Source of the DNA: Kiritimatiellia bacterium
Lineage (GTDB): Bacteria > Verrucomicrobiota > Kiritimatiellia > CAIVKH01
Assembly: GCA_035327305.1 (NCBI GenBank)
Contig: DAOLDL010000002.1
Coordinates: forward strand, 19,334 to 83,333
Reading direction: 5' to 3'
Length of the DNA stretch: 64,000 nucleotides
How positions within the stretch are numbered: the first letter of the stretch is position 1; every line of letters begins with the position of its first letter. The notes beneath the pieces are model-generated. The model ran no database searches and had not been told where the DNA came from. It was given only the letters and a program-made list of their open reading frames with translations. This document shows positions 33,303-50,997 of this stretch, piece after piece. A program made the position numbers and the translations under genes.

Positions 33303-33500
33303 TATCAGGTCTCCCCACCGTGCCATTGTTTGATTCCATCTCGATGGCAACCAGCACAAAGGAAATATCACCGCCATTATTTCAATATCAGGGAAGCACC
33401 GATACTCCTTCTGCGACGAATAGACCGCTCAAACGTTTCGTCTTTTCCCTGATAGGTCATTACGGCGCGTGCCCGATGGTATTAAAACTGCTTTATAACG

Positions 33501-36500
33501 ATGATATTCGCCATGAACTCCACCTTTTCGATTATTGATGGTAACGAAGCCGCCGCCGCAATTGCGCACAAAGTCAGTGAAGTTTGCGCAATCTATCCGA
33601 TCACGCCTTCCTCCAACATGGGCGAACTGGCCGACCAATGGTCCAGCGAGGGCCGCACGAACATCTGGGGCACCGTCCCGCTGGTTGTTGAGATGCAAAG
33701 TGAAGGTGGCGCCGCAGGCGCTGTTCACGGCGCATTGCAAACCGGAGCCATGGCCACCACGTTCACCGCGTCCCAGGGATTACTTCTCATGATCCCCAAC
33801 ATGTATAAAATCGCCGGTGAATTGACTCCGGCGGTATTTCATGTATCTGCACGAGCAATTGCATGCCAGGGTCTTTCCATTTTTGGTGACCATGCCGACA
33901 TCATGTCCGTGCGCGGGACCGGATTCGCCCTCCTTGGCGCCGCTTCAGTGCAGGAAGCCGCCGACATGGCATTGATCGCCCATTCCACCACGTTAAAGAC
34001 CCGGGTTCCATTTATTCACTTCTTTGATGGATTCCGTACATCTCATGAAGTAAACAAGGTCGTAACGCCGGATGACGATGTCATACGCGCCATGATTGAT
34101 GAGGAAGCCGTGCTGGCTCATCGGGCACGCGCCTTGAATCCTGACAAACCCGTCATGCGCGGAACGGCACAAAATCCTGATGTGTACTTTCAAGGTCGCG
34201 AAACCGTGAATCCATTTTATGCGGCAGTTCCTGATGCCGTTCAGTCCGCCATGGATCAGTTGGCTTCACTGACCGGACGTAAGTACAAACTTTATGATTA
34301 CTACGGCCATGCTGAAGCCGAACGCGTGGTTGTCCTGATGGGATCAGGGGTTGAAACCGTCAAGGAAACGATTGATGTCCTGTTGGCCAATGGAGAAAAA
34401 GTCGGCGTTCTGATGGTCCGGTTATTCCGCCCGTTTTCCGCCGGACATTTCGCCGCCGCCCTGCCCGCCACGGTAAAGACACTTGCCGTACTGGATCGAT
34501 CCAAGGAACCGGGATCTGCCGGAGAGCCCCTGTATCAGGATGTCATCACCGCCCTGGTGGAACAATTCAATGATGGCAGGTTGTCCATGCCGTCCCTACC
34601 CCGGATCATTGGCGGACGCTACGGACTTTCCTCCAAGGAATTCACCCCGGCTATGGTAAAAGCCGTATATGACGAATGCGCGAAAGCACAACCCAAAAAT
34701 CACTTCACGGTAGGTATCAACGACGATGTTTCGCATACCAGCCTGGAAATCGATCCCGACTTCGTGATTGAATCCGATAAAGTTGTCCGGGCCGTGTTTT
34801 ATGGACTTGGTGCGGATGGCACGGTCGGTGCAAACAAAAACTCGATCAAGATTATCGGGGAAGAGACAGATTTTTATACACAGGGTTATTTTGTCTATGA
34901 CTCAAAAAAATCCGGATCGCAAACGGTTTCACATCTTCGTTTCGGTCCCGACCCCATTCGCTCCACCTACCTGATTCAATCCGCCAACTTTGTCGGATGT
35001 CACCAATTTGGCTTCCTGGAAAAAACCGATGTGCTCAAGCTGGCCGCGCCCGGCTCGGTATTTCTTCTTAACAGTCCCTTCGGCCCGGATGACGTCTGGA
35101 ACAAATTGCCGGGACGAATCCAGGAACAAATCATTGCCCGTAAGATATCGTTTTACGTCATTGATGCCTACAAAGTCGCCAGGGAAAGCGGCATGGGTTC
35201 GCGCATCAACACCATCATGCAAACCTGCTTTTTCGCAATCTCCGGCGTTTTGCCGCGCGACAAAGCCATTGAACAAATCAAGAAGGCGATCGAAAAAACC
35301 TACAAACGAAAAGGCGTGGAAGTTGTTCAAAAGAATTTCGCCGCCGTGGATCATACCCTTGCCCATCTTTATCAGGTAAATGTGCCGTCAGCCGTCACCG
35401 CTGACACCGCGCCGCCGCGAATTGTCTCAGACAACGCTCCTGAATTTGTACAAAGTGTACTCGTCCCGATGATGATCGGAGAAGCCGACAATCTGCCGGT
35501 AAGCAAGATGCCGGTAGACGGGACATTCCCCACAGCAACGACGAAATGGGAAAAAAGAAACATTTCCGACATGGTGCCGGTTTGGGATGAAACAATTTGC
35601 ATCCAGTGCGGACTTTGCGGACTGGTCTGCCCTCACAGCGTCATACGTTCCAAAACCTATGATGAATCGCACTTAACCCATGCGCCCGCCGCATTCAAAT
35701 CCGCTACCTTACGAGGCAAGGATGTCGCACCAGGATCACGGTATACCTTGCAGGTTTACATTGAAGACTGTACCGGGTGCGGACTATGCGTCGGGGTATG
35801 CCCGACCAAAAACAAGCAGGAGGTCGGATTACGCGCAATCAATATGGAAGCCAAGGCTCCCGTTTTCGAAGACGAGCGTGAAAATATCCGTTTTTACGAA
35901 ACGTTGCCGGTCAATACGGATCCGACACTGGATGGAACCCTGGTCAAGGATGTGCAGTACATGGATCCTTTGTTCGAGTTCTCTGGAGCTTGCAGTGGTT
36001 GCGGAGAAACGCCGTACGTTAAAATATTAAGTCAGCTTTTCGGTGATCGCATGCTGGTGGCCAACGCCACCGGCTGTTCATCGATTTATGGCGGAAACCT
36101 TCCTTCCACCCCTTGGTCAGTCGATCATCTGGGACGAGGCCCCGCCTGGTCGAATTCGCTGTTTGAGGACAATGCCGAGTTTGGATTCGGATACCGGCTG
36201 ACCCTCGATAAACATTCGGAATATGCCAGTGAATTGATAAAGAAATTCGGACCGCAATTGGGCGATCAACTGGTAGACGATATCCTGAACGGAAGAAGAA
36301 CCGGTAAAGCCGAGGTGGAAAAACAACGGGAACGAGTATCTGCCGCCAAAGAAATATTAACGTCCGTCAAAGATCCGGACGCGCGGCGCCTGTTGTCGAT
36401 TATTGATTGTCTGGTCAACCGCAGTATTTGGATTATGGGGGGAGACGGATGGGCGTACGATATCGGGTACGGCGGATTGGATCACGTACTCGCCTCGGGA

Positions 36501-37109
36501 CGCGATATCAATGTGCTGGTTCTGGACACCGAAGTATATTCCAACACCGGTGGTCAGATGTCCAAATCAACGCCACGCGGCGCGGTGGCAAAATTTGCCG
36601 CCGGTGGCAAACAATTGGGCAAAAAAGACCTTGGCCTACTGGCCATTTCCTATGGTCATGTCTACGTTGCCCGGGTTGCGATGGGCGCAAATCCACGCCA
36701 GACCTTGCGGGCATTGGTTGAAGCAGAACAATATCCTGGACCATCGCTGGTCATTGCCTACAGCCACTGCATTGCACACGGCATCGATATGGCAAATGGT
36801 CTGAAACAGCAAAAACTCGCGGTCGACAGCGCACACTGGCCGCTTTACCGGTTCAATCCGGGTCTGATGGGATCGGACAAAAACCCGTTCAGTCTCGACA
36901 GCAAACCTCCCACCATTTCACTCCGGGATTATGCTTACAACGAAGTTCGCTACCGGATGCTTCATCACAGCCATCCCGAAGAAGCCAGCCGGTTGCTCAA
37001 ATTGGCGGAGCAGGATGTCAAGGAGCGCTGGGCCATTCACGAAAGCCTTGTTAAACGCTATGAACCCGCACCGGCTGTTGCCGCCGTTGAAAGCAGGAGC
37101 ACGACATGA
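33501..37109 (+). CDS. nifJ: Pyruvate:ferredoxin (flavodoxin) oxidoreductase, single-polypeptide NifJ/PFOR type
   Basis: 1202 aa, collinear with PFOR: N-terminal domains I/II, two ferredoxin Cys motifs (CIQCGLCGLVCP, CTGCGLCVGVCP), and the TPP domain GGDGWAYDIGYGGLDH. An alternative start is at 33513. Confidence 0.9.
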   Translation: MIFAMNSTFSIIDGNEAAAAIAHKVSEVCAIYPITPSSNMGELADQWSSEGRTNIWGTVPLVVEMQSEGGAAGAVHGALQTGAMATTFTASQGLLLMIPNMYKIAGELTPAVFHVSARAIACQGLSIFGDHADIMSVRGTGFALLGAASVQEAADMALIAHSTTLKTRVPFIHFFDGFRTSHEVNKVVTPDDDVIRAMIDEEAVLAHRARALNPDKPVMRGTAQNPDVYFQGRETVNPFYAAVPDAVQSAMDQLASLTGRKYKLYDYYGHAEAERVVVLMGSGVETVKETIDVLLANGEKVGVLMVRLFRPFSAGHFAAALPATVKTLAVLDRSKEPGSAGEPLYQDVITALVEQFNDGRLSMPSLPRIIGGRYGLSSKEFTPAMVKAVYDECAKAQPKNHFTVGINDDVSHTSLEIDPDFVIESDKVVRAVFYGLGADGTVGANKNSIKIIGEETDFYTQGYFVYDSKKSGSQTVSHLRFGPDPIRSTYLIQSANFVGCHQFGFLEKTDVLKLAAPGSVFLLNSPFGPDDVWNKLPGRIQEQIIARKISFYVIDAYKVARESGMGSRINTIMQTCFFAISGVLPRDKAIEQIKKAIEKTYKRKGVEVVQKNFAAVDHTLAHLYQVNVPSAVTADTAPPRIVSDNAPEFVQSVLVPMMIGEADNLPVSKMPVDGTFPTATTKWEKRNISDMVPVWDETICIQCGLCGLVCPHSVIRSKTYDESHLTHAPAAFKSATLRGKDVAPGSRYTLQVYIEDCTGCGLCVGVCPTKNKQEVGLRAINMEAKAPVFEDERENIRFYETLPVNTDPTLDGTLVKDVQYMDPLFEFSGACSGCGETPYVKILSQLFGDRMLVANATGCSSIYGGNLPSTPWSVDHLGRGPAWSNSLFEDNAEFGFGYRLTLDKHSEYASELIKKFGPQLGDQLVDDILNGRRTGKAEVEKQRERVSAAKEILTSVKDPDARRLLSIIDCLVNRSIWIMGGDGWAYDIGYGGLDHVLASGRDINVLVLDTEVYSNTGGQMSKSTPRGAVAKFAAGGKQLGKKDLGLLAISYGHVYVARVAMGANPRQTLRALVEAEQYPGPSLVIAYSHCIAHGIDMANGLKQQKLAVDSAHWPLYRFNPGLMGSDKNPFSLDSKPPTISLRDYAYNEVRYRMLHHSHPEEASRLLKLAEQDVKERWAIHESLVKRYEPAPAVAAVESRSTT

Positions 37110-38122
37110 ACCTAAGTACCAACTATATGGGTCTTCATCTGAAAAATCCGCTCGTCCCCTCCGCGTCCCCCATCATGGAAAACGTGGACAACATCCGCCG
37201 GCTGGCCGACGCCGGAGCTTCCGCAGTTACCATGTTCTCCATATTCGAAGAGCAACTTCGCATGGAAGCGGCGGCTTTGGACCACTACACATCGGTAGGC
37301 GACAATATGTATGCGGAATCATTGTCGTTCTTTCCGCAAACGGATGAATACCATGTTGCACCGAACCGGTACCTCGACATCATTCACCGGGCTTCGCAGG
37401 CTGTTGACATTCCCATCATTGGAAGCTTGAACGGCATGACCAATGAAGGCTGGATTGACTACGCGGCGCAAATTGAAAAAGCCGGCGCCAAAGCACTGGA
37501 ATTGAACATATTCATGATTCCCACCGACCCGAAAATCAGCGGTGGCAAGGTTGAGGAGTCCTATATCGATATCGTGAAGGCGGTCCGTGACGCAGTCTCC
37601 ATTCCAATCGCGGTAAAAATGAATCCGTTCTTCAGTTCGATTGCCAATATGGCGAAAAGGTTTGAGGAAGCTGGCGCTGATGGACTGGTTCTCTTCAACC
37701 GGTTTATACAACCTGACTTCGATCTTGAAGAACTCGAAGTCGTGCCAAACCTCACCCTTAGCTCGCCCGGTGAAATCAGGCTTCCGCTCCGGTGGATTGC
37801 CATCCTGTATGGCCGTCTCGGCATATCGCTGGCGGCATCTCGCGGCGTTCATTCATCGCGTGAAGTTATTAAATACATCCTGGCTGGCGCGGATATTGTT
37901 TGCATGACATCCGCCTTGCTCAAACAGGGCATCCCCTACCTCAACCACTTGCTCACCGATCTGGTCGCCTGGATGGATGAACATGAATACGAGTCGATCG
38001 AACAGATGAAAGGCGCCATGAGCCAGAAGTCCGTTTCCGATCCATCGGCATTCGAGCGCGCGAATTATATCAAGACCATTGAGCATTTCAAACGACACCA
38101 TGCCGCCAGCATGCCGTGGTAA
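37106..38122 (+). CDS. Dihydroorotate dehydrogenase / dihydropyrimidine dehydrogenase-like flavoprotein (class 1 DHOD fold)
   Basis: GLHLKNPLVPSAS and DHOD-like TIM-barrel pattern, 338 aa. Its ATG overlaps the PFOR stop (ATGA). Confidence 0.7.
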   Translation: MNLSTNYMGLHLKNPLVPSASPIMENVDNIRRLADAGASAVTMFSIFEEQLRMEAAALDHYTSVGDNMYAESLSFFPQTDEYHVAPNRYLDIIHRASQAVDIPIIGSLNGMTNEGWIDYAAQIEKAGAKALELNIFMIPTDPKISGGKVEESYIDIVKAVRDAVSIPIAVKMNPFFSSIANMAKRFEEAGADGLVLFNRFIQPDFDLEELEVVPNLTLSSPGEIRLPLRWIAILYGRLGISLAASRGVHSSREVIKYILAGADIVCMTSALLKQGIPYLNHLLTDLVAWMDEHEYESIEQMKGAMSQKSVSDPSAFERANYIKTIEHFKRHHAASMPW

Positions 38123-38159
38123 GTGATAGTGAATCAGTACAAAATAAGGAGAATAAAAA

Positions 38160-38348
38160 ATGAAAGTTGAAGTTGATGCCAGCACCTGCACGGGTTGTGC
38201 AGTTTGCAGTGATTTGGCGCCGGAAGTATTCGAATTGACGGATGACAATATTTCAATCGTCAAAACGCCTGAAGTGCCAGCCGGATTGGAAGACAAAGTT
38301 CAAGAAGCGGCCGATAGCTGTCCGGTAACCTGTATTGCCATTTCCTGA
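38160..38348 (+). CDS. fdx: Small single-cluster [4Fe-4S] ferredoxin
   Basis: 62 aa with CTGCAVC...CP Cys pattern. Strong SD AAGGAGAATAAAAA before the ATG. Confidence 0.75.
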   Translation: MKVEVDASTCTGCAVCSDLAPEVFELTDDNISIVKTPEVPAGLEDKVQEAADSCPVTCIAIS

Positions 38349-38423
38349 TCGGTGTCATTGCCGGTATGCTGATGATTCTCATGCCGGTAGCGATTCTTTG
38401 ACGGAATAAAGGACCGAACCAAC

Positions 38424-40307
38424 ATGCATGTTCCATTGGGATTAATTTTAGTTCCTCTTATCGGGGCATTTGTCATGTTGGCATTGGGCCTCACGAAAAT
38501 GCGAAAACCTCTGGTGATCGCATGTTCCACGGTTATTGGTCTTGGGTCCCTGCATCTGCTCTTCAATCAACTGCATTCTGAATTTCTACTGATGCCAATC
38601 AATGAACACGATTGGCTTCCAGTATTCGGTTGGTTGGGACTGGGAATCGGCGTTCTCCTGTTCATCATCAGCATTCGTCATCGACAGTACCTCGCGGCGA
38701 TCTTGGCCGCGACACAGGCAACGCTGGCCTGGTGGGCCGAGCACCTCACGCATATTTCGGAACAAGTAGTGCCTGCGCCCATGGTAATTGATCATTTATC
38801 GACCATCATGGCGGCAATCGTCGGGCTGATCGGCGGACTGATTTGCGTCCATGCCGTTGGCTACATGAAAGATTGGCATGAACATCACAAAAACCTTCCT
38901 GATCGACGTAATGTTTTCTTTTTTCTCCTGTTTATTTTTCTCTCATCCATGTTTGGTTTGGTATTTGCCAACAGCCTGCCTTGGCTGGTCTTTTTCTGGG
39001 AAGTCACCACTATTTGTTCCTTTTTCCTGATCGGCTACGCACGTTCTGACGAAGCCATCAAAAACTCATTTCTGGCTTTGAAGCTGAATCTGATTGGCGG
39101 GATTTTCATGACGTTGGGATGGATTCTGATTATCTGGCGGGGGGGAACCCTGGATATGCTTCAAATAGTGGCTTCCGGTGACGCACTTTACCTTTTGCCG
39201 GTTGCCATGATTTGTGTGGCTGGATTGGTCAAATCGGCCCAGTTTCCCTTCTCGCCCTGGTTACTCGGTGCGATGGTGGCGCCGACACCTGTTTCCGCCA
39301 TGCTACATGCCAGCACCATGGTAAAGGCCGGTGTGTATGTAATCATCCGGTTTGCCCCGGTTTTGCAAGACACCACGGCCGGACTTATGATATCATTGAT
39401 TGGTGCAACTACTTTTCTCCTCACCTCTCTGATCGCCATCGGCCAGAATAATGCCAAACGAGTTCTGGCTTACTCCACCATCGCCAACCTTGGCCTTATC
39501 GTTACATGCGCAGGCACCGGACAATACAATGCCATTTGGGCGGCCATACTATTAATTATATTCCACGCAGTCGCCAAAGCACTTCTGTTTCTAGCCGTTG
39601 GCACGGTTGAACATCGTCTTGGCAGTCGTGATATCGAGGATATGCAGGGACTTATTATGCGTCATCCGGCGCTTGCCGTGGCCATGTTGGTGGGAATCGC
39701 CGGGATGTTCCTGGCGCCTTTCGGATTATTGATAAGCAAATGGGCCGCACTGGAAGCACTGATTGTAGTCAATCCCATCCTGCCGATATTTGTTGTTTTC
39801 GGCAGTTCAGCGACGCTATTTTTCTGGGCAAAGTGGATGGGTAAAATCATTGGCGCGGAGCCTGGTACCCGCCCGGTTCCTGATGACACCCACTCGCTCG
39901 AATTGATTGTGTTGGCGGTACTGACGTCCATGGTGATTGTCTGTTGCGCAGCTTTCCCCTGGGTCGCGGAAATGATGATCGACCCCTATGTTATTTCCGC
40001 CTACGGGCGCACCATGATTATTGATCGCGAGACCATGGTGGTCATGTCCATCATGCTCTTGCTGGTGGCGCTACTTCCGTTAAGCCTTCTTTATCGGGGT
40101 GGCGAACGTTTCCGTCGCGTGGCGCCTTATCTTGCAGGAGCCAACTACGAACACCCCTACCGATTCACCGGCTCCGCCGGCAAAGAATATTCAATGGGAT
40201 TCAAAAACTATTACCTGGCTGAATATCTTCCCGAGGCCGGTATATGCCGCTGGGGATATCTGGCTTCGCTGACACTATTGCTGGTACTCATGGTGGTGGC
40301 ATTATGA
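38424..40307 (+). CDS. echA: Ech hydrogenase subunit A (NuoL/MnhA-like proton-antiporter membrane subunit)
   Basis: 627 aa polytopic Proton_antipo_M-type protein. First gene of the ech-type module. Confidence 0.8.
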   Translation: MHVPLGLILVPLIGAFVMLALGLTKMRKPLVIACSTVIGLGSLHLLFNQLHSEFLLMPINEHDWLPVFGWLGLGIGVLLFIISIRHRQYLAAILAATQATLAWWAEHLTHISEQVVPAPMVIDHLSTIMAAIVGLIGGLICVHAVGYMKDWHEHHKNLPDRRNVFFFLLFIFLSSMFGLVFANSLPWLVFFWEVTTICSFFLIGYARSDEAIKNSFLALKLNLIGGIFMTLGWILIIWRGGTLDMLQIVASGDALYLLPVAMICVAGLVKSAQFPFSPWLLGAMVAPTPVSAMLHASTMVKAGVYVIIRFAPVLQDTTAGLMISLIGATTFLLTSLIAIGQNNAKRVLAYSTIANLGLIVTCAGTGQYNAIWAAILLIIFHAVAKALLFLAVGTVEHRLGSRDIEDMQGLIMRHPALAVAMLVGIAGMFLAPFGLLISKWAALEALIVVNPILPIFVVFGSSATLFFWAKWMGKIIGAEPGTRPVPDDTHSLELIVLAVLTSMVIVCCAAFPWVAEMMIDPYVISAYGRTMIIDRETMVVMSIMLLLVALLPLSLLYRGGERFRRVAPYLAGANYEHPYRFTGSAGKEYSMGFKNYYLAEYLPEAGICRWGYLASLTLLLVLMVVAL

Positions 40308-41170
40308 CGCGAAACTTTCTGGCGGGATTTGCTTATCTATTGCTGGCGCCGGTGATCGGCGCCGTATTGGCCGGCATTGACCGCCGCATCACGGCACGCA
40401 TGCAAGGTCGACGCGGTCCCCCCATCCTTCAGCCGATTTACGATTTATTCAAACTACTTCAGAAAGAGCCGATCGGTGTTCGTCGCACCGGACATTTTTT
40501 TGTATTTGGCCATCTGATTTTCATGATGGCGGCAGGATTTGAATTTTTCTTTGGCGGCGACTTGTTGATTGTGATTTTCGCGTTTGCGCTTTCCAGCGTA
40601 TTCCTCGTTTTGGGAGCCTATGCCGCCCATTCACCCTTCAGTCACATTGGCGCCGAACGTGAATTGCTCCAGATGATGGCGGCCGAACCGATTCTCCTGC
40701 TGACCGCCATGGGATTTTATCTCGCAAACGGAAGCTTCCGTGTGGAACAGATATCCACACATCCCGTTCCGGCACTGTATGTTCTACCCGGTATATTTGC
40801 CGCGCTCGCCTTTATTCTAACCATTAAACTTCGCAAATCACCATTTGACCTTGCCACGTCCCATCACGCTCATCAGGAAATCGTCAAAGGACTGACCACG
40901 GAATTTTCCGGCGTTTCCCTTGCACTGGTGGAAATTGCGCACTGGTATGAAACGATCATGCTGTTGGGTCTGTTTTACCTTTTTCTCGCACCCTATCCGG
41001 TCGCGGCCATCCTCCTCGTTGCGGTTGTTTACGGACTCGAAATCCTGCTGGATAATACCAGCGCCCGCATGAAATGGCAGTGGGCAATGAAAAGCTCCTG
41101 GACAACCGCCTCCATTCTCGGCGCCATCAACCTCATTGTGATTTATTACTGGCTGGGAGGACAGCCATGA
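40304..41170 (+). CDS. echB: Ech hydrogenase subunit B (NuoH/HycD-like membrane subunit)
   Basis: NuoH-like sequence. ATG 40304 overlaps the echA stop (ATGA). Confidence 0.8.
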   Translation: MTRNFLAGFAYLLLAPVIGAVLAGIDRRITARMQGRRGPPILQPIYDLFKLLQKEPIGVRRTGHFFVFGHLIFMMAAGFEFFFGGDLLIVIFAFALSSVFLVLGAYAAHSPFSHIGAERELLQMMAAEPILLLTAMGFYLANGSFRVEQISTHPVPALYVLPGIFAALAFILTIKLRKSPFDLATSHHAHQEIVKGLTTEFSGVSLALVEIAHWYETIMLLGLFYLFLAPYPVAAILLVAVVYGLEILLDNTSARMKWQWAMKSSWTTASILGAINLIVIYYWLGGQP

Positions 41171-41610
41171 GCTTTTTCACCAAATCGCCATGGATTGTCC
41201 ATTACGACGGCGCCAGTTGTAACGGTTGCGACATCGAAGTGCTGGCCTGCTTGACTCCCCGTTATGATGTGGAGCGATTCGGATGCATTAACACCGGCAA
41301 CCCCAAACATGCCGACATTTTGCTCATCACCGGCTATATCAATGAACAAAGTGAGCCGGTAGTCAGGGCCATCTACGAGCAGATGGCTGACCCCAAGGTC
41401 GTAGTCGCCATTGGTATTTGCGCAACAAGCGGTGGAATCTTCAAGGATTGCTACAACACCAAAGGTGGTGTGGATACGGTCATTCCGGTTGATGTCTATG
41501 TGCCCGGTTGCGCCGCACGCCCAGAATCCATCATCGATGGCGTGGTAAAAGGCATCGCCATACTCGACCAGAAGCGCAAAACACTTAAGGAGTCGCGCAA
41601 AGCATCATGA
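41167..41610 (+). CDS. echC: Ech hydrogenase small subunit (NuoB-like, [4Fe-4S])
   Basis: CNGCDIE...GICATSGG...PGC pattern. ATGA overlap with echB. Confidence 0.85.
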   Translation: MSFFTKSPWIVHYDGASCNGCDIEVLACLTPRYDVERFGCINTGNPKHADILLITGYINEQSEPVVRAIYEQMADPKVVVAIGICATSGGIFKDCYNTKGGVDTVIPVDVYVPGCAARPESIIDGVVKGIAILDQKRKTLKESRKAS

Positions 41611-41984
41611 TCCCCGAGCAAGTCATTCATGAAATTGATTCAACCGATCTGCTTGAACGCACGCAGATCATGAAGCGTGAAGGATGGCGACTGGTGCAGA
41701 TTTGCGCCACGACGCTGGACGCCTTTGAAATGAGCTACAGCTTTACCATCGACAACCGATTTGAGCATTTCCGGCTTAAAATCCCATTACAGCAACCGAT
41801 CCTGCCCAGCATTACCGAAATATACTTTGGCGCCTTTGCCTATGAGAATGAATTGCACGACCTTTTCGGCATTTCGTTCCAAGGACTCAAACTCGATTAC
41901 GCCGGCAACTTTTTCAAGACGTCGGTTAAAAAGCCGTTTGCCACCAGCATGTGCGTGATTAAAAAAGGAGAAGCCGGTGTCTGA
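41607..41984 (+). CDS. echD: Ech hydrogenase subunit D (NuoC-like 30 kDa subunit)
   Basis: NuoC-like 125 aa protein. 4-nt overlap with echC. Confidence 0.7.
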   Translation: MIPEQVIHEIDSTDLLERTQIMKREGWRLVQICATTLDAFEMSYSFTIDNRFEHFRLKIPLQQPILPSITEIYFGAFAYENELHDLFGISFQGLKLDYAGNFFKTSVKKPFATSMCVIKKGEAGV

Positions 41985-43056
41985 ACGAACGGTCATTCCA
42001 TTCGGGCCTCAACACCCTGTCCTGCCGGAGCCTATCCATATCGATCTGGTGGTGGAAGATGAGCATGTCAAAGAGGCCATCCCCTCCTTTGGCTTTATTC
42101 ATCGCGGACTTGAGAAGCTGGTTGAGAAAAAAGATTTCAACGAATTCACCTACGTTGCGGAGCGGGTGTGCGGCATCTGCAGTTACATTCATGGCATGGG
42201 GTATTGCCAAGCCGTGGAAAAAGTCATGAATGTCGAAATCCCGCCCCGTGCAAATTACCTCCGGGTATTTTGGGCGGAACTTTCCCGGGCGCACAGTCAT
42301 TTGATGTGGGCAGGTTTGCTGGCCGATGCGTTTGGTTTTGAGAACCTCTTCATGCAGTGCTGGCGGATTCGCGAAACGCTTCTCGATGTAATCGAGGAAA
42401 CCACCGGCGGTCGCGTCATTTTCGGATCCGCCAAAATCGGCGGTGTGCGCCGCGATGTCGATAATGAAACGTTGAAACGTTGCGCGGCCAAAGTCGCCTC
42501 TGCAGCGGTTGAGTTTGAGGAAATTAAAAAGGTTTTCCGCGACGACTATTCAGTAAAGTCGCGCTTGTGTGGGATCGGCATGCTTTCCCGCGATAATGCA
42601 TGGGAACTTGGCGCGGTCGGACCGACTCTTCGAGGCAGTGGCATTAGCACCGATACCCGGCTTGAAGGATATGCGGCCTACCGCGACTTATCCATAACCC
42701 CGATCGTGGAAACCGCTTGTGACAGCTATGCGCGTTGCATGGTGCGACTGCATGAAATCAGCCAATCCCTTGATCTCATTCAGGAAGTTGCGGCCCGCAC
42801 CCCCGAAGGTCCGGTTTTCGAAAAACCCAAGGGCTACCCCAATGGCGAATATTTTGCCCGATTGGAACAGCCTCGCGGTGAAGTCATTTATTATGTAAAA
42901 GGTAATGGAACGAAGAACTTGAGTCGGTTCCGGGTACGAACCCCGACGTTTGCCAATATTCCCGCCCTGCTTCACATGTTGCAAGGATGCGAACTGGCGG
43001 ATGTCGGCTTGATCGTGCTTACGATCGACCCATGTATCAGTTGTGCGGAGCGATGA
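41977..43056 (+). CDS. echE: [NiFe] hydrogenase large subunit, group 4 energy-converting type (EchE/NuoD-like)
   Basis: L1 motif RVCGICSYIH and C-terminal L2 motif DPCISCAER are both intact, so Ni-Fe ligands are present. 359 aa like EchE. Confidence 0.85.
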   Translation: MSERTVIPFGPQHPVLPEPIHIDLVVEDEHVKEAIPSFGFIHRGLEKLVEKKDFNEFTYVAERVCGICSYIHGMGYCQAVEKVMNVEIPPRANYLRVFWAELSRAHSHLMWAGLLADAFGFENLFMQCWRIRETLLDVIEETTGGRVIFGSAKIGGVRRDVDNETLKRCAAKVASAAVEFEEIKKVFRDDYSVKSRLCGIGMLSRDNAWELGAVGPTLRGSGISTDTRLEGYAAYRDLSITPIVETACDSYARCMVRLHEISQSLDLIQEVAARTPEGPVFEKPKGYPNGEYFARLEQPRGEVIYYVKGNGTKNLSRFRVRTPTFANIPALLHMLQGCELADVGLIVLTIDPCISCAER

Positions 43057-43057
43057 A

Positions 43058-43465
43058 ATGAAACCTCTCGCCATGACCAAACTTTCGTTGCGGAACCTGT
43101 TCAAAGAACCGGTGACGGTGGCCTATCCGGTTATACCGCGGGAATACTTCCCCGGTACCCGGGGTCGCATACTTATAGAGCCATCCACATGCAATCTTTG
43201 CGTTATCTGCGATGTTCGATGTCCGACAAAGGCAATCAAAGTCGATCGTAAAGGTCAAACCTGGACCATTGATCGCCTGTCCTGCATTCAATGCGGTGCT
43301 TGCGTCGAGGCATGTCCAAGGAAATGCCTGACCACCGGCAATCAATATTCCGAACCCATGACCGAAAAGTCTGTCCTTGTAGTCCCGATTCCGTTTGTTC
43401 CGCCGCCGCCCAAACCAAAACCGCCCGCAAAGGATGCAAGCGATGCAAAAGACAGTCCCGTATAG
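43058..43465 (+). CDS. echF: Ech hydrogenase subunit F (NuoI-like 2x[4Fe-4S] ferredoxin)
   Basis: Two CxxCxxCxxxCP motifs (CNLCVICDVRCP, CIQCGACVEACP) and a Pro/Lys-rich C-terminal tail. Start at ATG 43058. Confidence 0.8.
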   Translation: MKPLAMTKLSLRNLFKEPVTVAYPVIPREYFPGTRGRILIEPSTCNLCVICDVRCPTKAIKVDRKGQTWTIDRLSCIQCGACVEACPRKCLTTGNQYSEPMTEKSVLVVPIPFVPPPPKPKPPAKDASDAKDSPV

Positions 43466-43466
43466 C

Positions 43467-43958
43467 ATGGCCATTGAAAGCCGATATCCGGAGCAGATTG
43501 CCGTCTGTATTGCCCGTGATTCCTCCGGACGTTACAACCCCATGACGATTGGATGGTTCATGCCGGTTTCCATGAAGCCGCCACTGATTGCCGTGGCAAT
43601 CGGTAATTCCCGTCACACGAATGCAGTGATCAAGCACGCTGGTGAATTTGTTTTATCCTTTCTATCCGAGGACCAGGCTAATCTGGCCCGCTACTTCGGC
43701 ACAAAATCCGGTCGTGATACCGACAAGTTCGGCACTATTCGTTGTGAAACCGTTCCGGCGGATAAAATTGACAACCGGTTGATTCGTGATGCCGTGGCGA
43801 ATTTTGAATGCGTGGTCAAACAAACGGTGGAAACGGGTGATCACACCATATTTATCGGTGAAATCGTTTGTGCCCATGTCACGGATAATCCGGTCAATCG
43901 TATGTTCACCCTGGTCAAAGCGGAACACTTGAATGGTGTGCGACAAAAATCCGTATAA
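43467..43958 (+). CDS. Flavin reductase-like domain protein (FMN-binding split-barrel, PF01613-like)
   Basis: 163 aa with flavin-reductase-like pattern (ESRYPEQIAVCIARDSSGRYNPMTIGWFMPVSMKPPLIAVAIG...). It begins 1 nt after the echF stop and ends 11 nt before hoxE. Confidence 0.65.
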   Translation: MAIESRYPEQIAVCIARDSSGRYNPMTIGWFMPVSMKPPLIAVAIGNSRHTNAVIKHAGEFVLSFLSEDQANLARYFGTKSGRDTDKFGTIRCETVPADKIDNRLIRDAVANFECVVKQTVETGDHTIFIGEIVCAHVTDNPVNRMFTLVKAEHLNGVRQKSV

Positions 43959-43969
43959 CGGAGGAAAAC

Positions 43970-44461
43970 ATGAATGCCGTTGAAACTAATGTTATCGGCG
44001 ATGAAAAAAGGTGGCGCCTTGTCGAGGCGGTCATGCGACGTTGCGGCTACTGCGGCGATGCCTTGATTGAAACCTTGCATGCCGTACAGGAGACCTATGG
44101 CTTTATCGACGAATCATCTATGCGTCGCGTGGCGGATTCATTGAAACTACCGTTAAGCAAGGTTTACGGTGTCGCAACATTCTACCACTTCTTCCACCTT
44201 AAACCGAAGGGTCGCCATACTTGCGTGGTCTGTATGGGAACTGCCTGTTACATCAAAGGCGCCGATGCCATCATGCAAAAAATTGATGACGCATTTGGCG
44301 TGAAGGCTGGTGAGACCACGCCGGATGACCACTTGTCGGTCATGACGGCGCGCTGTGTTGGTTCCTGTGGATTAGCCCCTGCCGTGGTGGTGGATCAACA
44401 GGTATTAGGGCATATCAAACCGGATCAAGTCGTCAATCACATCAAGGAGCTGGAATCATGA
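43970..44461 (+). CDS. hoxE: NAD(P)-linked hydrogenase diaphorase subunit HoxE (NuoE-like, [2Fe-2S])
   Basis: NuoE/thioredoxin-like 2Fe-2S pattern CGYCGDA...CMGTACYIKGA...CVGSCGLAP. Confidence 0.85.
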   Translation: MNAVETNVIGDEKRWRLVEAVMRRCGYCGDALIETLHAVQETYGFIDESSMRRVADSLKLPLSKVYGVATFYHFFHLKPKGRHTCVVCMGTACYIKGADAIMQKIDDAFGVKAGETTPDDHLSVMTARCVGSCGLAPAVVVDQQVLGHIKPDQVVNHIKELES

Positions 44462-46071
44462 CCCCCGAAGCCCTCCAGCAAGTAGCCAAAGCCGAGCAGG
44501 ACGCCATCACCAAACAACCGCAACGCATCGGTGTTTGCACTGCCGCCGGCTGTCTTTCATGCAAAAGCGGAGAAGTCCTAAAAACACTTCAAACCGCACT
44601 CGAACGCCGGGCCGACGTACCCTACAAAGCGGTGGGGGTCGGATGCATGGGGCTTTGCGCGCATGGACCGCTGGTGTCGGTCGAACCCGATGGTTTACTT
44701 TACCAGGACGTCGGCAAGGACGATATTCCAGCTTTGGTGGATTCTCTGGCCACGACACCGGTCATGGAAAAGCAATGCGATCTCAAAGCGCCATTTTTCA
44801 GCCGACAAGTCAAGGTGGTACTGGATAAGTTCGAGAAAATCCAGCCCGAACGCATCGAGTCCTATCTGGCCAACGGCGGTTACGAAGCTTTGATGCAATG
44901 CGTAACCAACCGATCACCGGAGCACATACTGGACGAAGTAAAACGAAGCGGCCTTCGTGGTCGCGGCGGCGGAGGATATCCCACCGGATTAAAGTGGGAA
45001 ACCGTAGCCAAGGCGCACGGCGCCAGGAAATTCGTGATCTGTAATGCTGATGAAGGCGACCCCGGCGCTTTCATGGACCGCAGTGTATTGGAGTGCGCGC
45101 CGCATCGGATTCTGGAAGGAATGGCCATCGCCGCATATGCGGTTGGCGCAACCGCAGGTTACCTTTATGTGCGCGCGGAATACCCGCTTGCCGTGCAACG
45201 ACTAAAGCTGGCTATTCGCCAGGCGGAAAAATTCGGACTTTTGGGCGATCACATTTGTGGAAGTTCATTCAGCTTTAAAGTGGAAATTCGGCTTGGCGCC
45301 GGGGCCTTTGTATGCGGAGAAGAAACCGCGTTGATCGCATCGATTGAGGGACGGCGAGGTCAACCGCGACCGCGCCCGCCCTTCCCTGCTGAAAAAGGTT
45401 TATGGGGCAATCCGACATTGATCAATAACGTGGAAACATTTGCGAATGTCCCGGCTATTCTCGTAAAGGGAGCGGATTGGTTTGCGGCAATGGGTACGGA
45501 ACAAAGCAAAGGAACCAAGGTTTTCGCTTTAGCCGGAAAAATCAACAATACCGGCTTGATCGAAGTTCCCATGGGCATCAGCTTAAGAGAAATCGTGGAG
45601 GAAATGGGCGGAGGCGCTCCAGATGGACACACCATCAAGGCCGTACAAACCGGAGGTCCATCCGGCGGCTGTATTCCCTCGGATCGGTTTGATATTTCCG
45701 TGGACTACGAGTCGCTGAAGAAAATGGGATCCATCATGGGTTCCGGAGGCATGATCGTGATGGATGAAACATCGAGCATGGTCGATGTCGCTCGCTTTTT
45801 CATGGAGTTCTGCAAGTCGGAGTCATGTGGCAAGTGCGTACCATGCCGGGTGGGAACATCACAATTGTACGACCTACTGGAACGGGTCCGCAAAAAACGC
45901 GCATCGCACCGGGATCTGGAGCGGATCGAACAACTATGCGAAATGGTGCGTACCACGAGTCTATGCGGACTCGGGCAAACCGCGCCAAATCCACTGTTGA
46001 GCACCTTGAAATTCTTCCGTCACGAATACGAAGAACTTCTGGTGGATCAACATGGGGAGGCCGTGTCATGA
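44458..46071 (+). CDS. hoxF: NAD(P)-linked hydrogenase diaphorase subunit HoxF (NuoF-like, FMN/NAD(P)H-binding, Fe-S)
   Basis: [15 protein letters not shown]-binding glycine-rich region, 4Fe-4[11 protein letters not shown], and an N-terminal Trx-like 2Fe-2S domain. 4-nt overlaps on both sides. Confidence 0.9.
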
Positions 46072-46790
46072 CCACAACCAGCGCAAAAGTCATCACACTG
46101 ACCATTGACGGACGCGAAGTAGGAGCGCGCGAAGATCAGACGATTCTGACCATTGCGCGTGAAAACAAAATACACATTCCGACACTTTGCTTTCTCGAAG
46201 GCTTGTCACCTGCGGGAGCTTGCCGTCTTTGTCTGGTGGAAATTGTCGGAACCAACCGGATTCTCCCCGCGTGCACGACCTATGCCACGGATGGGATGGT
46301 GGTACGGACTACATCCGAGTCACTGGAACAACACCGTCGCACGGTCATTGAACTGCTGTTTGCCGAGGGAAATCATGTTTGTGCCGTTTGTGTTTCCAAC
46401 GGAAATTGTGAATTGCAGGATCTCGCCACGGAATTGGGCGTGGACCACATCACCCTGCCCTACCTCAACCCGAAACGTCCGGTTGATGCCAGCCATCCAC
46501 GATTCACGCTGGACCACAACCGTTGCGTATTGTGCGCACGTTGTGTGCGGGTATGCGATGAAATAGAAGGCGCACATACCTGGGATATCATGGGGCGAGG
46601 CGTTGATGCCCGCATCATTGCCGACCTTAATCAGCCTTGGGGCGAGGCGGTTTCCTGCACAAGTTGCGGTAAATGCGTACACGTTTGCCCCACCGGAGCC
46701 TTGGTCGAAAAAGGAAAAGCCGTGGCGGAAATGAAAAAACGTCACGCCATTCCAAAACTAATCACACGCAACAAGGAGCCTGCATCATGA
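46068..46790 (+). CDS. hoxU: NAD(P)-linked hydrogenase diaphorase subunit HoxU (NuoG N-terminal-like, 2Fe-2S plus 4Fe-4S)
   Basis: 240 aa. Cys clusters [48 protein letters not shown] overlap with hoxF. Confidence 0.85.
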
Positions 46791-47293
46791 GCAGAATTCG
46801 CTTTGCCACAGTTTGGCTTGATGGCTGTTCCGGTTGTCACATGTCGTTTCTGGACATGGACATGATCCTGCTCGACCTCGCGGAAAAAATTGACCTCGTT
46901 TACAGTCCGCTGGTGGATTTCAAGATATTCCCGGAGAATGTGGATGTAACCGTGGTTGAAGGCGCCGTGAGCAGTGTGGAGGATGAGGAGAAAATTAAAC
47001 ATATCCGGAGCCGGACCAAGACATTGATTGCCCTGGGCGATTGCGCGGTGACCAGCAATGTTCCGGGGATGCGCAATGTCTTCAGCGTGGATGACATCAT
47101 GGAATATGTTTATGGCGATGAGCCGCCGGTGAAAGTCATTCCACCACTCCTTGAAAAAAGCGTGCCGGTGCATCATGTTGTGCCGGTCGATGTTTTCATA
47201 ACCGGATGTCCGCCATCCGCCGACACCATCGTCAAGGCGCTTCTGGCTGTGCTGGAAGGCAAGCCCAATCCCGTTCCACCCCGATTTGGATGA
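46787..47293 (+). CDS. hoxY: [NiFe] hydrogenase small subunit, group 3 (HoxY)
   Basis: Proximal cluster motif [15 protein letters not shown] and ITGCPPS. SD ACAAGGAG; ATGA overlap with hoxU. Confidence 0.85.
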
Positions 47294-47299
47294 CAAACC

Positions 47300-48724
47300 A
47301 TGAGTCGAACCATACTGATAGATCCGGTAACTCGTATTGAGGGGCACTCCAAGATCACCATATCACTGGATGATCAAGGCGTCGTAACGAACGCCCGCTT
47401 TCATGTAACGCAATTCCGGGGTTTTGAGGCGTTCTGCGTCGGAAGACCGTTCGAGGAAATGCCGGCATTGACTGCGCGCACCTGTGGCATTTGCCCGGTC
47501 AGCCACCTGATGGCATCGGCCAAAGCCGGCGACATGTTGCTGGCGGTGGATATTCCACCAGCGGCAAAACTATTGCGCCGGGTCCTTAACACCGCACAGA
47601 TCATTCAATCCCACGCCTTGAGTTTCTTTTATTTGTCATCACCTGACTTGGTTCTTGGCATGGACGCGGATCCGTCCGAGCGCCACATCCTTGGACTTGC
47701 CGCCAAGCATGAACAAGTGGCGAGAAACGGAATCACCTTGCGACAGTTTGGACAACAGATCATCGAAGATCTTGCCGGAAAACGAATTCATCCGGCGTGG
47801 GTGGTACCGGGCGGCGTCAGCCGTCCCTTAACCGAAGATCAACGTGTTCGGGTATTGGAAAAGCTTCCTGCCATGCTTGATATTGCACGACAGACCCTGG
47901 ATTCCTATCAGGATTGGGCGGTTAAGTTTGCTGACGAAATCAAATACCTCGGCCAGCATCCCAGTCTTTACATGGGATTGGTGACAAGCGATGGCGGGCT
48001 GGAGCATTACGACGGACAACTCCGGATGATCGATGAAAACGGCAACGAACTGGAAGCCGCCATTCCCACATTACATTACGGCGAATTTCTGGAGGAACAC
48101 GTTGAACCCGACTCCTACCTGAAGTCGCCCTATTACAAACCGAAGGGATACCCCGGCGGCATGTATCGGGTGGGTCCATTGGCCCGCATGAACTTAACGA
48201 CTCATGCCGGCACACCGATCGCGGATGAAGCATATTCTGCGTTTCGCGAAATCAATCGTAACGGACCGGTGGACAGTACATTTCATTATCATCATGCGCG
48301 GTTAATCGAAATTATTTTCGGTCTGGAAAAAATAGCCGAGTGGTTTAGCGATCCGGTGTGTATGGACAGACGGGTCCGGGCCATTGCCGCCCCGAACAAC
48401 CGGATTGGCGTGGGAATATCCGAAGCGCCACGAGGCACCCTCCTCCACCACTACGAAATTGATGACCACGGTCTGATCACCAAAGTGAATATGATCATCG
48501 CCACCGGACACAACAATCTGGCCATGAATGCGGGAATTCTGCAGGCGGCCAAGCAATTTGTGAAAGGCAACAAAATTCCTGAAGGCGCCTTGAATCGTGT
48601 TGAAGCGGTTATTCGCTGTTTTGATCCCTGCTTAAGTTGTTCGACCCATGCATATGGCCAGATGCCGATCAAGATCGAGCTACGCGCATCGGACGGCCGC
48701 CTCCTTGATGTGGCTTCAAGATAG
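47300..48724 (+). CDS. hoxH: [NiFe] hydrogenase large subunit, group 3 bidirectional type (HoxH)
   Basis: RIEGH N-terminus, L1 motif [11 protein letters not shown]2 motif DPCLSCSTH, followed by a C-terminal extension of the kind removed by a maturation protease. Confidence 0.9.
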
Positions 48725-48749
48725 TTCTGCAGAGATCAGAATTCTTAAA

Positions 48750-48830
48750 CCGCAAACCTGCGTCCTTGTCACAAGATTGCCAGGGAATCCCACAGCTTTC
48801 CCATTTGCGGCTTTCTGTTTTTCTGCTTAA
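48750..48830 (+). terminator. Putative structured terminator region after hoxH
   Basis: CCGCAAA(48750-56)...TTTGCGG(48804-10) encloses nested hairpins and is followed by CTTTCTGTTTTTCTGCTT. Weak, non-canonical. Confidence 0.3.
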
Positions 48831-48840
48831 ATGCCATATT

Positions 48841-49236
48841 ATGACAACGCGTGGCGCCAAAGCACAATTACGACAGCGATTGTACCTCGCCGCTCATCAG
48901 GAAGTTAAAAACATCATATCCAGGTTGCCGGATCCGGTACGCAATCACGCTCAAGCCGTCCCGGTAATTTTTGAAATGACCCCATCGGCAAAGGATGCAA
49001 AAAGTGGAATTGAATCAGACACCCTTGGATTGTTCACCGGCATGCCTATTTCCGAACAGTTAAATTCCTTAAGTGTGGAACCGACTCAAATCATATTATA
49101 TATGGAAAACATCTGGGATTACGTCCGGCATGATGCAACCGACTACCGCGAAGAAATTTGCCGGACATACCTTCATGAGTTGGGTCATTATCTGGGATTG
49201 GAAGAACACGAACTCGAAGAACGCAACCTCGATTGA
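48841..49236 (+). CDS. Zincin-like metallopeptidase-fold protein (DUF1025-like, HExxH)
   Basis: 131 aa ending in the ...YLHELGHYLGLEEHELEERNLD pattern typical of the small bacterial zincin-like family. Confidence 0.6.
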   Translation: MTTRGAKAQLRQRLYLAAHQEVKNIISRLPDPVRNHAQAVPVIFEMTPSAKDAKSGIESDTLGLFTGMPISEQLNSLSVEPTQIILYMENIWDYVRHDATDYREEICRTYLHELGHYLGLEEHELEERNLD

Positions 49237-49262
49237 TGAATCCACCATCTCCTGCATCGCAT

Positions 49263-50300
49263 ATGCTCTTTGTCTGTCGCCCGGAATTCAGTTCGTCACT
49301 TGTCGACGAAATCGAAGCACACGGGATTAATCGTGCCGCTATCCGGATCGATTGCCCGGGCATTGTCATTGTGAACGACCACAAGACAACCTCCTTGCCG
49401 ACATTGATTTTTGAACGCATGCGCACGCCGGGTCCGAAACTAATTCCATTAGGCAAACTCAAACCTGTGACACCGGATACCGCCATGGAATTGTTCGGAA
49501 ATATCGTCATGGATACACCATTGTGGGCGCCCCGGCTATTGACCCTGGAATGGGATGATGCGGATGAAGCGGTGCGGCACCGACTTGAAGGCGTGTGGAA
49601 TGCATTGTTACGAGAAGGACGAAAAATTGCTCCGGACATTGAAAAACGTCAGCGAGCATTGCAAAGGCTTAAACCGGGTGGCTCTTTGATAAATCTGATT
49701 TTGAGTCCGCAAGGACTTTGGCACTCAAGAGACATTGTGCAGGACGCAAACATCTTCGAGATTCGCCGGTCCCATCGCATGAAATTTGACCCGCTTGCTC
49801 CATCCCGCTCTTATTTAAAAATGGAGGAAGCGATTGACCGGCTTCAGCGAACACCCGGTGCGGGCGAGAAAGTCATTGATCTGGGGGCGGCACCCGGTGG
49901 ATGGACGTATTCTTTTATCAGGCGGGGCTGTGACGTGATTGCCGTCGATCATGGACCGATGAAACTTCCGCCACATCAAACCGGTTGGGGAAACATGACA
50001 CATATCAAAGAAAACGGCATCACTTTCAATGCTCCACCGGATTGGCCAACGGTTGACTGGTTGGTTGCCGACATGTTGATTGCCCCTGGCATTGCACAAG
50101 GTTTGTTGCGGCGTTGGATGGAATCCGGGAACGCAAGAACGATTGTCTGCAATATAAAACTTCCGCAAGAACAACCCTACATTGCGTTAAAACCCATTCT
50201 TGAGATGTTGCAACAACTGACAGGTTACCGTTCGAGCGTTAAACAGCTGTATCATGATCGACGGGAAGTTACAGTAATGGCCGAACGGGTCGTTCCGTGA
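49263..50300 (+). CDS. rlmM: 23S rRNA 2'-O-ribose C2498 methyltransferase RlmM
   Basis: MLFVCRPEF N-terminus as in E. coli RlmM (MNKVVLLCRPGFE), FtsJ motif DLGAAPGGWT, and a C-terminal ...QLYHDRREVTV matching RlmM LYHDREEVTV. Confidence 0.85.
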   Translation: MLFVCRPEFSSSLVDEIEAHGINRAAIRIDCPGIVIVNDHKTTSLPTLIFERMRTPGPKLIPLGKLKPVTPDTAMELFGNIVMDTPLWAPRLLTLEWDDADEAVRHRLEGVWNALLREGRKIAPDIEKRQRALQRLKPGGSLINLILSPQGLWHSRDIVQDANIFEIRRSHRMKFDPLAPSRSYLKMEEAIDRLQRTPGAGEKVIDLGAAPGGWTYSFIRRGCDVIAVDHGPMKLPPHQTGWGNMTHIKENGITFNAPPDWPTVDWLVADMLIAPGIAQGLLRRWMESGNARTIVCNIKLPQEQPYIALKPILEMLQQLTGYRSSVKQLYHDRREVTVMAERVVP

Positions 50301-50935: not shown

Positions 50936-50958
50936 CTTTACACCTCCATTGCCATATA

Positions 50959-50974
50959 CTATACATATGTATAG
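50959..50974. promoter_or_regulatory. Perfect 16-bp palindrome CTATACATATGTATAG; candidate LexA operator (SOS box) in the lexA promoter
   Basis: Perfect dyad located 24 nt upstream of the lexA ATG in the lexA/recombinase divergent intergenic region. It does not match the E. coli or Cheo box consensi. Confidence 0.5.
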
Positions 50975-50997
50975 CTTTCGGGGTAAAGGAAAATTCC

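Follow-up and report, generated by a model that had tools for sequence, protein, structure and literature searches.

Several described hydrogenase systems resemble the locus analysed here. The HoxEFUYH enzyme of Synechocystis sp. [quoted passage not shown] The ferredoxin in the assays was reduced by pyruvate:ferredoxin oxidoreductase (PFOR), and H2 could also be oxidised with NAD+ alone, at lower rates (10.64898/2026.06.25.734504). In the fermenter Thermoanaerobacter tengcongensis, a ferredoxin-dependent Ech hydrogenase is accompanied by a NADH-dependent hydrogenase (Soboh 2004, as cited in PMC5861303). The present study deals with a stretch of 64,000 nucleotides (nt) from a Kiritimatiellia bacterium (GenBank assembly GCA_035327305.1, contig DAOLDL010000002.1, positions 19,334 to 83,333 of the forward strand), called the window below. 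It carries an Ech-type and a Hox-type [NiFe] hydrogenase in one gene string, behind the genes for PFOR, a dihydroorotate dehydrogenase (DHODH)-like protein, and a small ferredoxin (fdx). It is probable that this locus is a co-expressed, modular H2-evolution operon of a fermentative Kiritimatiellia bacterium.

Genes were assigned by Pfam and NCBIfam profile matches. The features of the string are as follows.

33513..37109, + strand: PFOR, single-chain NifJ type (Pfam POR_N, PFOR_II, POR, EKR, Fer4, and TPP_enzyme_C).
37106..38122, + strand: DHODH-like FMN TIM-barrel protein, PRK07565 subfamily (NF005741, 472 bits, cut-off 303).
38160..38348, + strand: fdx, 62-aa single-cluster ferredoxin (Fer4_13 and Fer4_15 on the identical gene; CTGCAVC and CP motifs).
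38358..38390, + strand: 11-bp stem-loop in the 75-nt fdx-echA spacer, followed by UUCUUU (81-nt fold of -25.6 kcal/mol, z = -2.2).
38424..40307, + strand: echA, NuoL/Mrp-type antiporter-like membrane subunit (Proton_antipo_M, E = 1.6e-53).
40304..41170, + strand: echB, NuoH-like membrane subunit (PF00146, E = 2.6e-40), with an ATGA overlap with echA.
41167..41610, + strand: echC, NuoB-like small subunit with the proximal [4Fe-4S] cluster (PF01058; CNGC, GICA, and GCAARP).
41607..41984, + strand: echD, NuoC-like subunit (PF00329, E = 2.5e-11).
41977..43056, + strand: echE, group 4 [NiFe] large subunit with a GTG start (PF00346, Complex1_49kDa, and PF00374, NiFeSe_Hases).
43058..43465, + strand: echF, NuoI-like 2x[4Fe-4S] subunit (Fer4 families; two CxxCxxCxxxCP motifs).
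43443..43958, + strand: flr, 171-aa split-barrel flavin-reductase/flavoredoxin-like protein (PF01613, E = 2.9e-39).
43970..44461, + strand: hoxE, NuoE-like [2Fe-2S] subunit (NCBIfam HoxE equivalog, 231 bits, cut-off 224; CMGTAC and CVGSC).
44458..46071, + strand: hoxF, FMN/NADH subunit (Pfam 2Fe-2S_thioredx, Complex1_51K, SLBB, and NADH_4Fe-4S).
46068..46790, + strand: hoxU, short NuoG-like subunit with one [2Fe-2S] and three [4Fe-4S] clusters (NCBIfam HoxU equivalog, 387 bits, cut-off 333).
46787..47293, + strand: hoxY, group 3 hydrogenase small subunit (PF01058; CSGC, GDCA, and GCP).
47300..48724, + strand: hoxH, group 3 [NiFe] large subunit (PF00374; PF27537 HoxH on the identical protein).
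48750..48826, + strand: terminator-like element 3' of hoxH, a CCGCAAA/UUUGCGG pair across a structured loop, then CUUUCUGUUUUUCUGC.

A preliminary description of the window had placed eleven genes at 38424-48724; all of them are found on the + strand at the coordinates it gave, its junction coordinates are all correct, and the back-to-back genes number twelve (six ech, flr, and five hox genes). PFOR and a ferredoxin gene lie upstream of ech, as it had also said; they are on the same strand, and the DHODH-like gene between them can be added. PFOR opens the conserved string. Another possible ATG start is at 33501, and the gene call in a near-identical contig (locus L001) starts at the equivalent of 33513. 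The DHODH-like start overlaps the PFOR stop by 4 nt. The start of flr had been placed at 43467, which implies an N-terminus of MAIES. The ATG at 43443 adds eight residues, gives the N-terminus MQKTVPYS, and is preceded by an AAGGA ribosome-binding site; the flr homologues start with MQKTVP(Y/F)S, and the gene of locus L090 has the same N-terminal peptide with a TTG start. Thus 43443 is most likely the start, judged from these sequences.

By its large subunit and its set of subunits, EchABCDEF fits a group 4 Ech-type hydrogenase. EchE contains the motifs RVCGICSYIH and DPCISCAER, and the stop codon comes right at the second motif, with no C-terminal extension. Both Ni-Fe motifs are present in 119 of the 120 closest EchE homologues, and such a tail in none of the 120. 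The best relatives with solved structures are the MBH alpha subunit of P. furiosus (6cfw_L, 242 bits) and HycE of E. coli (7z0s_E, 226 bits); complex I subunits rank below both. Homologues of 65-87% identity carry the JGI label 'ech hydrogenase subunit E'. Two membrane subunits (NuoL- and NuoH-like) are joined by NuoB-, NuoC-, NuoD-, and NuoI-like subunits, and genes for CO dehydrogenase or formate dehydrogenase, the mark of Coo and FHL enzymes, were found neither within 10 kb on either side nor elsewhere in the window. The six subunits, the two CxxC pairs of the large subunit without a C-terminal extension, and the ferredoxin partner are shared with the Ech of Methanosarcina barkeri and T. 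tengcongensis. However, the ech genes of the window stand in mid-operon, between a ferredoxin gene and a second hydrogenase, and EchF has a Pro/Lys-rich tail. This tail of about 30 aa (VPIPFVPPPPKPKPPAKDASDAKDSPV, encoded within 43360-43465) did not align to relatives in the tblastn comparisons, and the flr start falls inside the DNA coding for it. Ferredoxin-dependent H2 evolution and ion pumping would be expected of this enzyme from its homology to Ech.

The Hox module has the gene order hoxE-F-U-Y-H with a separate HoxE, and the NCBIfam equivalogs that HoxE and HoxU match above cut-off are those of 'bidirectional hydrogenase complex' proteins. HoxH has both ligand motifs (CGIC and DPCLSCSTH), followed by a C-terminal extension of 24 aa. 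The motifs of both large subunits are as the preliminary description had quoted them. The two HoxH motifs are present together in 116 of the 120 closest HoxH homologues; more than 7,900 homologues were found at E <= 1e-100, and the identical protein is HMP88748.1 at NCBI, from a Kiritimatiellia metagenome-assembled genome (MAG). HoxF (537 aa) consists of an N-terminal thioredoxin-like [2Fe-2S] domain, an FMN/NADH domain, and a [4Fe-4S] site, and the four cysteines of each [2Fe-2S] site are all present. The HoxF motifs listed for Synechocystis are AFM, a single Phe, and GGPSG (10.64898/2026.06.25.734504), and the window HoxF carries all three. Of eight FMN/NADH-pocket residues reported for Synechocystis, seven match and the eighth is changed from Tyr to Phe; the positions were mapped with an offset of -3 throughout rather than from an alignment with the Synechocystis protein. 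In gene order, separate HoxE, N-terminal [2Fe-2S] domain, short HoxU, Ni-Fe motifs, C-terminal extension, signature motifs, and pocket residues, as well as in the link to a PFOR-reduced ferredoxin, the window enzyme is like that of Synechocystis. In contrast, the window puts PFOR and ferredoxin in the same operon, the ferredoxin, of 62 aa, belongs to the bacterial single-[4Fe-4S] and not to the plant [2Fe-2S] type, an Flr gene precedes hoxE, an Ech cassette lies upstream, no hoxW is nearby in the window, and the host is a non-photosynthetic anaerobe.

The bifurcating NiFe-HydABCSL of Acetomicrobium mobile (7T2R, Bfu) was considered as another type for this enzyme. It is the top solved match for HoxH, HoxF, and HoxU, above the Hydrogenophilus NAD-reducing hydrogenase (HoxH: 7t2r_D, 513 bits, and 5xf9_D, 406 bits), and HoxF shares with it the N-terminal [2Fe-2S] domain and the flavin-site motifs. 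The two [4Fe-4S] clusters of the HydB C-terminus (B3 and B4) are among the features reported as unique to the bifurcating enzymes (PMC8880783). The HoxF alignment covers residues 8-528 of HydB (7t2r_B, 597 aa, 660 bits), after which HoxF ends, without the C-terminal 2x[4Fe-4S] domain; HoxU (240 aa) matches HydA (7t2r_A, 692 aa, 230 bits) over residues 2-208 only and also lacks the C-terminal domain. The Bfu type was rejected on these grounds, and the architecture is that of the cyanobacterial HoxEFUYH, group 3d. The preliminary description had called the enzyme NAD(P)-linked. This label is probably incomplete: the preprint shows the HoxEFUYH type to be confurcating with NADH and ferredoxin, without NADPH. 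By this likeness both ferredoxin and NADH are most likely required by the window Hox, and both hydrogenases of the string would then probably be ferredoxin-dependent. A ferredoxin-dependent Hox would account for the position of hox behind PFOR and a ferredoxin gene, which is plainest in L090.

The motifs and the junctions bear out that an unbroken string of genes encodes two [NiFe] hydrogenases of different groups, both catalytically complete. Assembly chimerism, which would have made the arrangement an artefact, was ruled out because the full layout PFOR-DHODH-like-fdx-echABCDEF-flr-hoxEFUYH recurs in nine further independent Kiritimatiellia assemblies. These loci are L001 (a near-identical ENA contig), L002-L004 (GTDB species representatives, labelled Verrucomicrobia), L007, L010, L091, L096, and L097/L098. 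Their proteins share 54-92% identity, except for EchD (43-72%), and the ech, hox, and PFOR proteins diverge roughly in parallel. The gene sequences point to an arrangement that was passed down while the lineages diverged considerably. Recent horizontal transfer of one module was also rejected; GC content at third codon positions (GC3) is uniform across ech and hox.

Two reduced variants were found. Locus L090, on a 918-kb contig, has PFOR-DHODH-like-fdx-flr-hoxEFUYH without ech; identity to the window is 79-86% for PFOR and the Hox proteins. The L090 PFOR identity is 81-82%, versus 70-71% to deeper loci, and the PFOR and Hox trees put L090 within the subclade of the window. The ech genes are present in deeper-branching relatives (L007, L096) and in sister lineages; L090 is therefore best taken as a clean loss of the six-gene ech cassette. 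Locus L095, from a Kiritimatiellia MAG (EchE 74% identical), has PFOR-DHODH-like-fdx-echABCDEF followed by convergent unrelated genes, with neither flr nor hox. Stand-alone hoxEFUYH with hoxW and without flr occurs in L093 and L094 (other Kiritimatiellia, Lentisphaerae). In the HoxF+U+H tree, the subclade of the window clusters with the stand-alone L093 (69% identity) and not with the full-layout L007 and L096 (64-65%), which sit with the stand-alone L094 (70%). Hox phylogeny and operon type thus do not agree across L001-L003, L007, L090, L093, L094, L096, and L097: full-layout and stand-alone hox interleave, which implies that the hox linkage has been made or broken more than once. PFOR is upstream in every variant with sufficient sequence. 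The DHODH-like gene follows PFOR in all three operon variants (in the window and in L007, L090, L095, L096, and L097), and the 62-aa ferredoxin is kept in all variants at 59-92% identity. From these comparisons, PFOR and the small ferredoxin (with the DHODH-like gene) form the conserved core, and Ech and Flr-Hox are separable modules which would have joined this core independently. The ferredoxin would be the acceptor of PFOR and the donor of the hydrogenases.

The same variants bear on whether the two enzymes form a physical Ech-Hox supercomplex, as the preliminary description had proposed. This would be a complex-I-like assembly with NADH/FMN input and two Ni-Fe sites, in which Flr or the EchF tail might be the adaptor. 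The homologues of the complex I N-module (HoxEFU, related to NuoEFG) do adjoin those of the Q and P modules (EchABCDEF), the echF and flr reading frames share 23 nt, and a contact between Hox and NDH-1 has been speculated for cyanobacteria (10.64898/2026.06.25.734504). The likeness to complex I (NuoA-N) extends to the N-module (HoxEFU), Q-module (EchCDEF), and membrane (EchAB) homologues standing side by side; however, EchE keeps its Ni-Fe cysteines, there is no quinone chemistry, only two membrane subunits are present, and HoxEFU has a hydrogenase dimer of its own, being already partnered by HoxYH. Each module also occurs alone with PFOR-fdx in close relatives (L090, L095), full-layout Hox is interleaved with stand-alone hox operons, no fusion proteins were found among 117 flr homologues, and co-transcription does not imply physical association. 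The supercomplex is accordingly very unlikely. If it were true, with HoxEFU(YH) docked on the Ech peripheral arm, the cell would have a complex-I-like NADH/ferredoxin:proton oxidoreductase that translocates ions. Complex I is proposed to have arisen when a soluble NAD-linked hydrogenase merged with a membrane hydrogenase, and the supercomplex would be a living counterpart of that event, as well as a natural test case for the long-speculated contact of Hox with NDH-1 in cyanobacteria.

In L090, which has no ech, flr is retained immediately 5' of hoxE. Since flr stays with hox there, it belongs to the hox module and is not a neutral spacer between the two modules. The AlphaFold2 model of Flr (pLDDT 84.5) has as its top structural matches the FMN-binding protein PH0856, NADH:FAD reductases, and flavoredoxins, with TM scores of 0.7-0.8 and 25-29% identity. 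The fold is equally near to flavoredoxins, FMN-binding proteins, and NAD(P)H:flavin reductases, and assigning a function from structure was given up; the fold search cannot separate a flavoredoxin from a flavin reductase. Flr could tentatively be an accessory electron-transfer partner of Hox. Outside the clade, Flr was rejected as a marker of this layout: homologues of at most 52% identity, mainly from Planctomycetota plus one Firmicutes MAG, stand alone with no adjoining hydrogenase. Such stand-alone homologues (42-52% identity, probably mostly Planctomycetota) often have a homologue of the same small Fer4_13/15 ferredoxin 1-6 kb upstream on the same strand, in about 30 of the 79 metagenome loci (among L008, L019, L022, and L036-L086). 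This could reflect a Flr-ferredoxin partnership or merely inherited synteny.

The close packing of the genes suggests co-transcription of the operon. From echA to hoxH, every junction is an overlap or a gap of at most 11 nt: besides the echF-flr overlap, neighbouring genes overlap by ATGA six times and by 8 nt once, and the gaps measure 1, 6, and 11 nt. The 23-nt overlap of echF and flr is identical in six loci of the subclade of the window, and deeper relatives have a 1-nt overlap to a 2-nt gap. Across the window and eight further full-layout loci (excluding L001 and L098), echF and flr overlap by up to 23 nt or stand up to 2 nt apart; for flr and hoxE the extremes are an overlap of 4 nt and a gap of 25 nt. 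An internal promoter or terminator at the ech-flr-hox junctions, which would split the modules, was rejected; the junctions leave no room for one, none was detected, and the hairpin at 43950-43962 has a z of only -0.36. Consensus scans found no promoter-like sites on the + strand of 41056-48841. The only terminator-like element of the echA-hoxH stretch comes after hoxH, where 119 nt fold with -28.6 kcal/mol (z = -2.07), and is a putative terminator. The hairpin between fdx and echA may be a partial terminator or an RNA-stabilising hairpin. Non-homologous hairpins are found in this spacer in L002, L003, L007, L090, and L091, that of L007 resembling a true terminator, and none in L095 and L096. 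No Rfam family matched anywhere in the window. A terminator-pattern scan of 33000-51000 gave 40 sites, versus 21.6 +/- 5.1 in shuffles; nearly all of them are intragenic, on both strands, and the excess is probably a composition effect. In L090 (4371-5105) and L095 (825-1550), a GerE/LuxR-type response regulator gene overlaps the PFOR start, and a PAS histidine kinase is also near PFOR in L090, which suggests two-component control of the operon in these two loci. No regulator of this type was found 5' of PFOR in the window.

The H2-evolution operon could work as follows. PFOR would oxidise pyruvate and reduce the 62-aa ferredoxin encoded two genes downstream, and the two hydrogenase modules would independently re-oxidise this ferredoxin. 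The membrane-bound Ech would combine protons with ferredoxin electrons to H2 and keep the energy as an ion gradient. The cytoplasmic Hox would make H2 reversibly from reduced ferredoxin plus glycolytic NADH by confurcation, perhaps with the FMN-type Flr of its module as an accessory electron-transfer partner. With both modules, ferredoxin and NADH electrons might be disposed of in flexible ratios together with a gain in ion-motive force, and Ech would be the energy-conserving outlet when NADH is spent elsewhere. The direction of electron flow and the confurcation are proposed by analogy with the described enzymes. Each glucose fermented to acetate gives 2 NADH and 4 reduced ferredoxins, the exact confurcation ratio (10.64898/2026.06.25.734504). 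The same division of labour is known from T. tengcongensis, where, in the work as cited, a membrane ferredoxin hydrogenase and a soluble multimeric NADH hydrogenase vent fermentation reductant as H2. The soluble enzyme there is given as an [FeFe] hydrogenase, whereas both enzymes of the window are [NiFe] and share one operon with PFOR and ferredoxin.

Since all three enzymes (PFOR, Ech, and Hox) are reversible, the string might also run in an uptake or reductive mode: Hox would bifurcate H2 to NAD+ and ferredoxin, a gradient-driven Ech would reduce ferredoxin, and the products would feed PFOR as a pyruvate synthase and other reductions. The Methanosarcina Ech runs from H2 to ferredoxin. Ech is also recorded in sulfate reducers, acetogens, and methanogens (PMC5861303), and the Synechocystis Hox bifurcates during H2 uptake (10.64898/2026.06.25.734504). 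However, no carbon-fixation genes were found in the window, and the 2:4 ratio of NADH to reduced ferredoxin in sugar fermentation suits H2 evolution. Cultivated Kiritimatiellia are saccharolytic fermenters, which also counts against uptake. Such a mode is improbable.

In another scheme, H2 would cycle within the cell as a substitute for Rnf. H2 from Ech would be re-oxidised by Hox, and the pair would act as an ion-translocating ferredoxin:NAD+ oxidoreductase. The reversibility of both enzymes, their place in one operon with a ferredoxin source, and the oxidation of H2 with NAD+ alone by the Synechocystis Hox are in line with this. Yet relatives keep PFOR-fdx with one module only, so that the pair is not obligatory; H2 readily leaves cells; an uptake-mode Hox at bifurcating stoichiometry would regenerate reduced ferredoxin rather than drain it; and abundant Kiritimatiellaeota bins from elsewhere are reported with Rnf. 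H2 cycling is thus rather unlikely as well. The more general idea of the preliminary description, in the form of a ferredoxin/NADH/H2/ion-gradient hub, fits the conserved synteny.

Some points weigh against H2 evolution by a single operon with a confurcating Hox. The fdx-echA hairpin may make PFOR-fdx and ech-hox separate or differently abundant transcripts. Confurcation has been demonstrated for the cyanobacterial enzyme only, in a preprint, and that enzyme uses a plant-type [2Fe-2S] ferredoxin, whereas the window enzyme would use a bacterial [4Fe-4S] one. The match of the HoxF pocket depends on the constant offset, and the role of Flr is not readable from the modelled fold. Finally, the 64-kb window has no hyp genes and no hoxW endopeptidase gene, although HoxH needs them. 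In L007 and L096, a hoxW-like gene of 164-166 aa and hypA/B(/F) lie directly 3' of hoxH, and in L090 and L097 about 2-3 kb downstream. Being accessory, hoxW may be elsewhere in the genome. Downstream of the window hoxH (48725-51612) there are a Zincin_1 gene, an FtsJ-type methyltransferase gene, a tyrosine integrase gene (- strand), and lexA, with a lower GC3 (0.46-0.52), which hints that the maturation genes were moved away by a local rearrangement. LexA regulates hox in Synechocystis; the nearness of lexA to hox in the window is probably coincidental.

The enzymes themselves are ordinary members of well-known families. No literature was found that combines Ech, Hox, and Verrucomicrobia/Kiritimatiellia or that describes this operon; the searchable literature names Ech and Hox side by side for various MAGs, never as one operon. 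The preliminary description had called the arrangement non-standard, and no paper describing it was found. The PFOR-DHODH-like-Fd-Ech-Flr-Hox architecture, its modular variants, and the association of Flr with Hox appear to be undescribed. In T. tengcongensis the two hydrogenases are encoded apart. The linkage of HoxEFUYH with PFOR and ferredoxin in non-photosynthetic anaerobes supports the recent claim of confurcation with ferredoxin and NADH over a simple NAD(P) linkage for this widespread class of enzymes. In anoxic waters and sediments, where they are abundant as fermenters of polysaccharides, the Kiritimatiellia may vent reductant as H2 by [NiFe] enzymes only. Two uncharacterised conserved partners are singled out, Flr for Hox and the DHODH-like protein for PFOR, and the three natural variants (both modules, Hox only, and Ech only) are a ready comparative system.

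The best solved-structure match of the DHODH-like protein has only 62 bits, to the PyrD subunit of DHODH-B. In Propionibacterium, PFOR is flanked by GltD-like and DHODH-like genes, and a complex has been postulated (PMC7650540). In the window, PFOR has a GltD-like YgfK homologue as its divergently transcribed neighbour on the upstream side. This YgfK-like Fe-S flavoprotein (TIGR03315, 890 bits) belongs to a - strand cluster at 23425-33377, together with two amidohydrolases and the FAD, [2Fe-2S], and molybdopterin subunits of a xanthine-dehydrogenase-family enzyme. By its gene content the cluster looks like an anaerobic purine-type catabolic cluster, and it is not conserved beside PFOR in relatives. 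About 9 kb downstream of the operon (57081-59937, + strand), PntB (627 bits) follows a probable PntA; together these would be a membrane NAD(P) transhydrogenase.

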